Shown in pieces: positions 1 to 3,000 of a stretch of DNA of 7,880 nt. The stretch comes from a virus (Duplodnaviria; Heunggongvirae; Uroviricota; Caudoviricetes). The stretch lies in the IMG/VR virus record IMGVR_UViG_2737471837_000006. The stretch is one strand, 5' to 3'. The stretch's first letter is position 1, and every line of letters begins with the position of its first letter. The position numbers were made by a program.

Positions 1-3000
1 AGCGGTAACATCAGCACGCAGAGTTTCATTTTCAGCTCTCGCATCGGCTAATTCCCTCGAGTATTTTGCATCGAGCGCAGCAACATCGTGCTGGCGCTGC
101 TGCATATCAGTAATGGTGGCGTTCGCCAGCTTCAGCTCACTGACTTTTTTATCGCGCTGCTCTTTGTAAGTGATGGCGTTATCGCGGTAATGGTTTGTTG
201 CCAGACACAGCGCACCACAAACCAACAGCAGGGCAATAATGACCATATACAGAATGCGGTTCATATCACCACCAGCGAATCTGCCCAATCAGGTAGCCAA
301 CAGAGGCGATAAACATCACCAGCCAGAGCATGATGAATTTCCAGTTTGGTAATTGCTTAATCATTAGTCGCAACTCCCGAATCAATTTGCTAAAATCGAC
401 CACAGGTTCTCCCTTGCTCCTTTCAAGGCGTGAAAACTAAAAACCCCGGACTGTTCCCCCAGCCGGGGTTTTGTTTTTTTATTTACTGCCCTGGGTGCGG
501 CATCTGGCTATTTCATTCCTGGCTTTACTGTCACCGCGACAGATACAACGCACCGTATCTCCGGTCAGCGTGGTAATGTAAGCCTCATCCTCTTTTTCTA
601 CCGGAATACATGGAATATCCCCGCTCCGGCAATACTCAATTTTTGCTACCAAGTGAGTGTCACGCGGATAGAACTCCAGACGATACATATCCCCCAGGAC
701 ATGCACTTCCTCAACCTGGCGACCATCTTCAGTTACGGTAATTTTTTTCAGTGCGTACATACGTACCTCCGTTCTTTCGTTTTTTGAGCAATAAAAAAGC
801 CGCTCATGGCGGCCCTGTATGTTTTGCAAGCTATCGCTTCAATTGAAAATGTGGGCCGTCTTTAAGCGTCCGCCAGTCCCCGCCCCATTCGATGGGGGTA
901 TTCAGCTCTTTCGCTGCCTGCTTAAATGCCTGCGCGATTTTCTCGTACAGAGGCCAGTCCCATGACACCTGGCTGCCAACCCAGGCAACAACATCCACCG
1001 CATCACCGGTCAGGTGGCGGCTGTTCATGGTCTGGCTCTTGCCTTCTGCAACCAGTTGTTTCTGGCGCTCTTTCGTGCGCAGACCTTCCGTAATACCGAA
1101 ATCAACCTCCGTCAGCTCCAGCGCACGGCGAACGACAGCAACCAGCTGTGGTTTTACGCCCTCCAGATTTTTCTCGCTCCGACGGCTGAATCTGAATTTA
1201 CCCGACATACTCACCTCCGTAATGAAAGGATTTTTGAAACGTTCCCACGTGCACGAATCACCAGCACGCAGAACAGCAGATTAAGCCCCACCGCCAGCCA
1301 GTTCGCAGCTAACGGACGACCACACAGATAGCTGAGTGGCGCAAAGGCATAAAGCAGCATCAGCAGCCAGGCCAGCCATGACATCAGCGGTTTATGTCTG
1401 GAATCACAGCGACGATAAAAAAAGAGCGTCAGCACGATAACCGTGCATAACGCCACATTCAGCAATCCGGGAAGGTTACTTAACATTGCCGCCTCCTCCA
1501 CCCCGCAGGCGGGAGAACAAGCCGGACACCAGTGATGCGATATCCTGCTGGTGGATGAATGACAGAATCTTCACCGACACCACCGATACCAGAACCGCAC
1601 ACAGCGCATCTGCCGATGTGCCGTCATAACCTGTTTTTGCCGCTATCCAGGCAGACAGCACACGCGCTCCCAGCACGCCGACAATGAACGACACCAGAAA
1701 ATGCGCCGCCACACGCCAGGCTGAAAGCGCCTGCGGCATCGTTGCCACAAATAACGCCCCGGCGAACGCACCAAACACAATCCCGAAATCCGTTCCGGTA
1801 AACAGCCCGAATACCGTCGCCCCGCCGAGCGCCGCTGCCGTACCGGAACCGGATAAGGGTTCAGACATAAATACCTCTCAAAATCAGCGTGATGGGAGTT
1901 TATATCAAGTTATAAATTTATGTGATTAAGTACCTTTTTGTGGTCCCATACAATAATCAGATGAACTACATGTACTTAAAGAAATTAGTTCGTTAGTAGA
2001 GAAGGCCTTTGTAAACTCGGAATCACTCCACACATTTTCCTTATAATAAACTCTTATACTTTCACCAGTAGCATAATAATACTTAGCCATTTCCATCATG
2101 GCATCGAAACCTTGTTTATGAGTTCCAAAAACATCAACCTTACACATATTGTGAATGGGAAGAGTCACATTATCACGCTTTATACCAATACAAAAAAACT
2201 GACTTTCCTTACCCCCGGATGTGTAAACGCCATATGATAAATTATTTATCTGAACATTACTATAGTACTTATCATAATCACTCATTACTGCATGACTGGT
2301 ACCAGATAACAATGAAAGAGTAATTAAGAAATATTTCATTTTCTGTTTCATAAAACCTCTTATATACATTGATAAGTTAATTAATAAGACAAATAATAAA
2401 CACATCATTTCAATAGAATCATTTTATAATTTCTTTTAACACACCTCTTGCATCATAAAACTCGGGTTCATAATAAGTAGCTCTTTTATTTAAACCATCT
2501 CTTCTGACTCCCTTCAGAGCAAAACAGGCACTAATCAGACTTCCAAACGCATTGATTCTTTCTCTAACTGATACAGTTGGTACAACTAATTGAGGTATAA
2601 CACCTGGATTTACAAACGTGGATCCAGGAACATACCTGGCATTGGTGGTTCCTGGTCCATCAGATACTTGGCTGTTGAATCTGTCATAAGTCAACTCCAC
2701 AGCCTCAACAATATTCTCACCAGGTATATGTTCCACCGCGACAATCTCGTTCTGCTCCCTCATCATTATCCGCTCAAATCCAGAGAAGGTTATACCGCGC
2801 TGGGTTAGATAATTGACTGACGGTTGAATAGGATAAAAAATATTATTTGCTCTGATACGGTAACGATATAACCTACCGTGAAATCCAGAACTTGAATAAT
2901 ATTGTCTGGCTATGTTATATGTTTCAATTAAACTGGTTGTGGTAGCAATAAATGCACTATCCCTACTCCCTGCCGCACATGAGTCCCCTCTTAAATGTTG

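Follow-up and report, generated by a model that had tools for sequence, protein, structure and literature searches.

What kind of gene lies between two terminator-like hairpins in the lysis region of a prophage, and when would such a gene be expressed? The question is raised by a 93-amino-acid (aa) open reading frame (ORF), hereafter T, located at 479..760 on the minus strand of a 7,880-nucleotide (nt) stretch of viral DNA (IMG/VR record IMGVR_UViG_2737471837_000006). This whole stretch, hereafter the window, matches at 100% a lambdoid prophage of Escherichia coli 06-00048, whose late region reads on the minus strand (all T-locus coordinates are given on this strand). A reading made from the DNA without database searches (the sequence-only reading) had presented T as a cysteine-containing gene inserted between endolysin and spanin, flanked by terminators, dependent on read-through of the late transcript and possibly encoding a metal-binding or disulfide fold. 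We find that T is an ordinary accessory gene, and neither a lysis nor a metal-binding protein. Probably, it belongs to a promoter-less, moron-like cassette (for morons, see PMC3594210; PMC2629481) that begins with a terminator, is expressed only by Q-antiterminated late transcription and specifies a soluble product of a binding type.

The T locus and the hairpin in front of it

T starts at an ATG (760-758) and ends at a TAA (481-479), as given by the ORF list and the sequence, and a Shine-Dalgarno (SD) sequence GGAGG can be read at 766..770, 5 nt before the ATG. An SD-like AGGA or GGAG occupies the same place in all homologous loci. Further upstream, the terminator scan reports a hairpin with its tail at 790..816. 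Its core stem pairs GCCGC (813-809) with GCGGC (803-799) around a CAUGA loop, further G.U and A-U pairs lengthen it to 816-796, and six U (798-793) followed by AUU form the tail. The hairpin begins 15 nt past the endolysin stop (TAG, 833-831), and the leader between it and the T ATG is 29 nt long when counted from where TTTTTTATT ends, and 32 nt when the count begins at the final T of the T6 run. A second, bidirectional-looking terminator (439..478) starts directly after the T stop and consists of an A-tract (478-469), a CCCCGG/CCGGGG stem (468-463 and 449-444) with an inner 3-base-pair stem, and a U5 tail (443-439); the 76-nt downstream segment folds at -26.3 kcal/mol (z = -2.3). Both hairpins have the form of Rho-independent terminators, namely a stem-loop rich in guanine and cytosine (GC) immediately followed by a U-tract, and would be expected to terminate transcription in vivo. 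Terminator-like sites are frequent in this part of the window (10 in positions 1-2500, versus 2.6 +/- 2.0 in shuffled sequences), and Rfam returned nothing near its thresholds for either hairpin or for the leader. The ORF, its GGAGG and the hairpins on both sides are present as the sequence-only reading described them, and its gap of about 28 nt between terminator and ORF is right (29-32 nt by our measurement); the end coordinate that it gave to the feature, 813, falls inside the upstream stem, whose limit is 816.

The limits of the inserted DNA are given by a four-way alignment of the window, strain E423, phage phiSTEC1575-Stx2k and a prophage of enterotoxigenic E. coli (ETEC) H10407. The first three carry, and H10407 lacks, a 351-nt segment (481..831) composed of a 15-17-nt spacer, the upstream hairpin, the leader and the T ORF, with ends that are ambiguous by about 3 nt (shared AGTAAA/ATA string). 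H10407 thus harbors the same holin-holin-M15 cassette without T, and the upstream hairpin is absent as well. At this empty site, the downstream hairpin (AAAACAAAACCCCGG...CCGGGGTTTTT) follows the endolysin stop without any interval. Its presence there identifies it as the terminator native to the endolysin, which leaves only the upstream hairpin as a companion of T. The idea that both hairpins were gained together with the ORF must consequently be abandoned, while the view of T as a gene inserted relative to collinear cassettes is borne out, not only by H10407 but also by the complete E. coli genomes: out of 5426, about 70 have a contiguous empty junction and about 58 the filled region, two states of similar frequency.

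The association between T and its upstream hairpin extends far beyond these strains. We collected 94 T loci from representative genomes and IMG/VR contigs (individual loci are designated below by L-numbers). A GC-rich hairpin followed by a T-tract is found 25-43 nt before the T ATG in 92 of them, representing 41 of the 43 distinct upstream sequences, and an independent ViennaRNA-based scan detects an upstream hairpin in 93 of the 94 loci. By this test, about 9% of the remaining genes in these loci are positive, a background that was estimated from crude ORF starts. The stem occurs in several variants (GGTCGC/GCGGCC, GGTCAC/GTGGCC, GATCGC/GCGGTC, CCTCGC/GCGGGG, and GGCTGC/GCAGCC). Compensatory double changes (G-C to A-U and C-G swaps) affect four of its eight pairs, 90% of the cells of the alignment are paired, and the covariation score was reached by none of 500 shuffles; when the register of the stem is slid, pairing falls to 21-66%. 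Sequences located 5' of the hairpin are unrelated between loci, such that the conserved upstream DNA is limited to the hairpin and 25-40 nt. The downstream terminator is less constant. Strict scans retrieve it in at least 53 of the 94 loci, a figure that is an undercount (hairpins at the segment start and hairpins with long loops are missed, and several more were seen by eye among the negatives), and loci in which a holin gene comes within about 20 nt after T clearly lack it.

A regulatory leader structure was considered and dropped. Leader segments of 80-90 nt fold no better than shuffled sequences (z from -0.2 to -1.9), and a pairing between the U-tract and the SD sequence is possible in Proteus and Providencia but is not seen in E. 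coli. As a separate observation, the first three codons (ATG TAC GCA; recorded at window 758-766) have the same nucleotides in the 20 loci compared (19 related loci and the window), even though protein identity goes down to about 50%. Codon 4 varies freely. A translation-initiation constraint may be responsible.

Probable late expression without a promoter

The sigma-70 consensus scan detected no promoter-like sequence on the minus strand between 760 and 900, in agreement with the earlier remark that there is no space for one in front of T. It is therefore reasonable to expect, as then proposed, that T is expressed by read-through from the late transcript. A Q-like gene followed by a tR'-like terminator (3454-3425) can be recognized in the window. 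In the collected loci, T is always co-oriented with the late genes, and genes for Q (PF06530) lie upstream of it in many cases, but its address varies. It is found after an M15 endolysin gene, after a second, unrelated 181-aa gene (an endolysin by position), and next to a Cys-rich 69-aa ORFan, which it may follow or precede. In Proteus, Providencia, and Xenorhabdus, it occupies the gap between a Q gene (PF06530) and a holin gene; 8 loci have it between a MuF-like head gene and a scaffold gene, and L016 has it among tail genes. In lambdoid phages, insertions are common in the Q-to-holin and endolysin-to-Rz gaps. In the head and tail settings, T is flanked by two canonical terminators of the same type inside an essential operon, an arrangement that is viable only if late transcription ignores terminators. 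Such transcription is a known property of lambdoid late operons (PMC2629481), where RNA polymerase loaded with Q reads through terminators (PMC9388147; bioRxiv 10.1101/651190).

We therefore favor the following scenario, pieced together from sequence features. A mobile accessory cassette of lambdoid prophages, made of a terminator hairpin, a 25-40-nt leader with its SD sequence, and a gene of about 80-93 codons, would have inserted in the window prophage between the stop of the endolysin and the terminator that belongs to it. An ordinary RNA polymerase that arrives from upstream would stop at the 5' terminator, before reaching T. The polymerase blocked in this way could include that leaving the AB5 toxin genes in the lysogen (these genes, which precede the holins, are described below), because neither the terminator scan nor the sequence reveals a terminator-like hairpin between the stop of the toxin B-subunit gene (1926) and the holin ATG (1868). 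Only the Q-modified, terminator-resistant polymerase of the late operon would transcribe T. As no promoter was found and a terminator lies directly in front of the gene, T would be made late in lytic growth and not in the lysogen. Its product would likely act late in infection by binding a protein of the host or of a competing element, and would be dispensable for lysis and virion assembly.

Several points weigh against this scenario. First, the deduction that T lacks a promoter comes from a consensus scan and from the want of space, and an atypical promoter overlapping the upstream hairpin is conceivable. In Proteus, the T-tract even continues as TATTAT, a good -10 hexamer; we nevertheless discarded a -10 element hidden in the T-tract, as other clades do not keep the hexamer and no -35 element accompanies it. 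Second, the Q-position protein of the window is a DUF1133 protein with only a sub-threshold match to Phage_antitermQ. Third, conservation of the hairpin might be due in part to its use as a joint in recombination, and not to regulation. The T cassette of L035 (IMGVR_UViG_2778261068_000003) meets a foreign gene precisely at a GCCTTTTTT string, which suggests microhomology recombination at the cassette terminator. A hairpin of the same type also precedes another small ORFan, a 44-aa protein starting with MKNLFINLC... Finally, the binding-type function is deduced from the small size of the protein, its fold and the lack of catalytic motifs.

Some details of these loci may be added. The L035 joint is located about 110 nt upstream of the T start, inside a 60-aa lipoprotein gene and after about codon 25 of it; GCCTTTTTT is shared with the cassette terminator, and the lipoprotein coding sequence there resembles a hairpin followed by a T-tract. 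As for the 44-aa ORFan (5370-5520 in L018; just 3' of T in L007, L012, and L014), its hairpin and T-tract precede it at 12 nt, and its place relative to T changes from upstream in L018 to downstream in L012; it makes up a second unit in which the terminator comes first.

An alternative to strictly late expression would make T a lysogenic-conversion moron of the classical kind, which the repressed prophage expresses to the benefit of the host. The presence/absence polymorphism of T in collinear prophages is what would be expected of such a gene, as are its location in moron hot-spots and its GC content (48%, versus 52-59% for the neighboring lysis genes). However, the sigma-70 consensus scan did not find the promoter that defines this class of genes, and a conserved terminator stands where it would be; nothing else is conserved 5' of the ATG besides the hairpin and the 25-40 nt that follow it. 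With no promoter and a 5' terminator, expression from a repressed prophage is not expected, and we consider this explanation unlikely.

The T gene and its product

Could T instead be an accessory or a regulator of lysis, for example a modulator of endolysin or holin timing, as the sequence-only reading implied by placing it in the lysis cassette? Most copies are indeed located directly after an endolysin gene or directly before a holin gene, and T would be expressed together with the lysis genes. Yet, at least four unrelated types are represented among the neighboring endolysins, the holins are not uniform either, nine loci have T among head or tail genes, and the same holin-holin-M15 cassette does without T in the roughly 70 E. 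coli genomes mentioned above. T matches no lysis family in PHROG or Pfam, and no membrane segment, signal sequence or lipobox is apparent from its sequence hydropathy or its structural model. Moreover, unrelated ORFs also lie between endolysin and Rz in other loci of the set (a 192-aa ORF in L013 and a 166-aa ORF in L004), which makes the statement that conventional cassettes have no gene at this position too strong. Varied neighbors and numerous cassettes without T argue against a dedicated lysis role, which we regard as quite unlikely.

T is a genuine gene, as indicated by its full-length match to phrog_33497 and by the ratio of non-synonymous to synonymous substitution rates (dN/dS), which ranges from 0.06 to 0.28 in unsaturated pairs. 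The match to this PHROG family, which has no annotated function and is the only one that T hits, is highly significant (E = 8.3e-56, residues 1-93 aligned to profile positions 1-95 of 95) and is shared by all 38 aligned homologues; in RefSeq, T is the hypothetical protein WP_047671122.1. Synonymous variation is seen from codon 4 onward, and the conserved parts of the family are an N-terminal MYALK and about 76 residues that form its core. Among 5.8 billion proteins, a word-indexed search yielded 53 relatives, only a few of them truncated, the named sources being E. coli, Salmonella, Edwardsiella, Hafnia, Proteus, Providencia, and Xenorhabdus; a genome scan added copies in an Aeromonadaceae metagenome-assembled genome. 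An exhaustive search of 1.84 billion cluster representatives with the T profile hidden Markov model gave 25 hits, among which four long poly-ubiquitin or Ig-repeat proteins were rejected as noise, their scores being obtained by summation over repeats.

These results also bear on the possibility that the RNA hairpins are the functional elements, acting as insulators or recombination linkers, and that the T ORF is a passenger of little consequence. The covariation of the upstream stem, the recurrence of this hairpin family at other gene boundaries and the recombination joint in the T-tract of L035 are compatible with such a role, but the ORF is under clear purifying selection across genera, has an invariant N-terminus and core, and stays constant while its flanks change. 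We hold the passenger explanation to be very unlikely.

Outside this PHROG family, the searches linked the product of T to no described family or fold. No informative match was obtained in Pfam, NCBIfam, PADLOC or the PDB with either the single sequence or the profile, Foldseek of the model against the PDB and BFVD gave nothing below E = 0.1, and a literature search returned nothing on the protein, the one paper listed for phage phiSTEC1575-Stx2k dealing with another subject. The AlphaFold2 model built from the family alignment (predicted local distance difference test, pLDDT, 88.6) is a seven-strand antiparallel meander, to which a basic C-terminal helix (residues 78-90) is added in the model of the E. 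coli clade. A ubiquitin-like fold was considered and rejected, as only poly-ubiquitin chains score (di-ubiquitin at E ~0.1), no single stretch passes, and the model lacks the central helix of a beta-grasp topology. T is hydrophilic (grand average of hydropathy -0.54, overall about -0.5; isoelectric points 5.3-8.6), and no catalytic or metal-site signature was recognized in it. The product is thus predicted to be a soluble, roughly neutral, all-beta protein of the cytoplasm. It appears too small and too featureless for catalysis and, judging from the model, its most plausible activity is to bind a protein of the host or of a rival element.

The least credible explanation, that T is a small Cys-dependent metal-binding or disulfide-stabilized protein, draws on five cysteines (C44, C51, C72, C74, and C86; the sequence-only reading counted four) that are all kept in the E. 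coli clade with C-x6-C and C-x-C spacings, but no Cys column is conserved in the family, whose members have 0-6 cysteines and in which C74 alternates with Ser, no zinc-ribbon or other metal-binding family is matched, and disulfides are unlikely in a protein predicted to be cytoplasmic. In addition, a separate AlphaFold2 model of the Cys-free Providencia homologue P0044 shows the same seven-strand meander (pLDDT 92.7, predicted template modeling score 0.79). As the Cys columns are not conserved and a Cys-free member has the same modeled fold, the fold of the family is not defined by cysteines; a metal site specific to the E. coli clade is conceivable, but would define neither the family nor its fold.

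A bolder version of the scenario that we favor, namely late expression of a terminator-first accessory cassette, can also be formulated. T would then be a late effector with a new fold, for example an inhibitor of a host abortive-infection or defense sensor triggered by late phage products, or an exclusion factor. It would be carried by a previously undescribed type of cassette in which the 5' terminator enforces strict Q-dependence and the CC-T6 tract serves as a shuffling joint between late operons. Taken as a whole, this version is doubtful. Should the favored scenario itself be true, some shuffled phage accessory genes would be built for strictly lytic, antitermination-dependent expression and not for lysogenic conversion, which would widen the moron concept and provide a search signature: a terminator, a short leader and a small ORF inside a late operon. 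T itself is a compact, confidently modeled beta-meander with no detectable relatives beyond a handful of Enterobacterales and Aeromonad prophages, which makes it a cheap target for a partner screen. Meanwhile, a false lead, that of a Cys-metal lysis protein, is removed from the annotation of toxin-carrying E. coli prophages.

Genomic setting and comparison with known systems

The late genes of the window, all on the minus strand, are arranged in the order Q-position gene, tR'-like terminator, toxin pair, two holins, M15 endolysin, T, membrane ORF and Rz. The Q-position gene (3532..4194) encodes a DUF1133 protein (PF06576, E = 3e-104) with a weak match to Phage_antitermQ (PF06530, E = 2.6e-5, below its cut-off). 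The tR'-like terminator (3425..3454), identified by the terminator scan and in the sequence, lies just 3' of this gene and would mark the start of the Q-dependent late operon that includes T. It is followed by a pertussis/ArtAB-like AB5 toxin pair (1926..3144; GC content 31-39%), in which the A subunit matches PF02917 and Scabin-like and the B subunit matches PF02918 weakly; the pair, between the tR'-like terminator and the holin, has the position of stx in Stx phages. Next come two holin-family genes (1211..1868; PF16931 and PF05449) and the M15 peptidase endolysin (831..1214; PF13539, E = 1.6e-11; phrog_465, endolysin).

T is located between this endolysin and the spanin, as previously noted, but not directly beside the latter, since a small membrane ORF intervenes (266..403; phrog_6632, E = 9e-22). 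This ORF, which has RWW as its last residues, counts 45 aa from a GTG (403) or 32 aa from an ATG (364); its stop and the start of Rz overlap (TGATATG). At the same position, related prophages have a 57-aa ORF, also ending in RWW, and a 60-aa lipoprotein with an LVGC lipobox. The small membrane ORF may be spanin-associated. The Rz-type inner-membrane spanin gene (1..264; PF03245, phrog_13; ATG at 264) is represented by its N-terminal part and is cut by the window end. Outside the late genes, a hokD-type toxin gene is found in the early region (5444-5599, minus strand). The large terminase gene of this prophage (L001 11033-13156) is annotated in RefSeq as a pseudogene with an internal stop, on which basis the prophage may be defective.

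Two companions of T in other loci deserve mention. The Cys-rich 69-aa ORFan (MY..YVHTSTDNHGDYEVH..GC.H...GCYWCC.ECHTS, no Pfam hit) occurs directly before, and sometimes after, T in about 20 loci from Aeromonad, Proteus, Providencia, and E. coli prophages (e.g. L012 5717-5929, L018 5722-5928, upstream of T in L004 and L005, and in L049 and L057), and the two genes may form an association. In a Xenorhabdus locus (L009 4933-5661), the ORF upstream of T (MMSENKQCPFNPDQYQNKDVVVPFGSFPWAIVQVYLGKKVYRSNW...) may resemble DUF2829/Tad2-type anti-Thoeris proteins.

How does the T cassette compare with known systems? With morons of lambdoid phages (HK97 gene 15 type), it shares the status of extra DNA between two late-operon genes, variable among collinear phages, as well as horizontal spread over several genera, a somewhat deviant GC content and a terminator at its boundary. 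It differs from them in that T has no promoter of its own, its conserved terminator is on the 5' side, and the 3' terminator seen in the window is that of the recipient. With the Q-dependent genes located 3' of pR'-tR' (stx, or here the ArtAB/pertussis-like pair), T shares the condition of non-essential cargo of the late transcript, with an expression that would be tied to Q and induction. Unlike these toxin genes, however, it has neither a secretion signal nor a toxin-like domain, and it also occurs in head and tail clusters. T is a plain member of PHROG 33497, from which nothing sets it apart, and the family carries no annotation. Finally, in mobile elements with insulating intrinsic terminators, such as the terminator/antitermination arrangement of Tn916 (PMC11658703), a terminator blocks premature or outside-driven expression until antitermination takes place, which is the behavior that we propose for the hairpin in front of T. 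In contrast to the arrangement described there, the terminator of T is attached to a single small gene and travels along with it in the loci compared.

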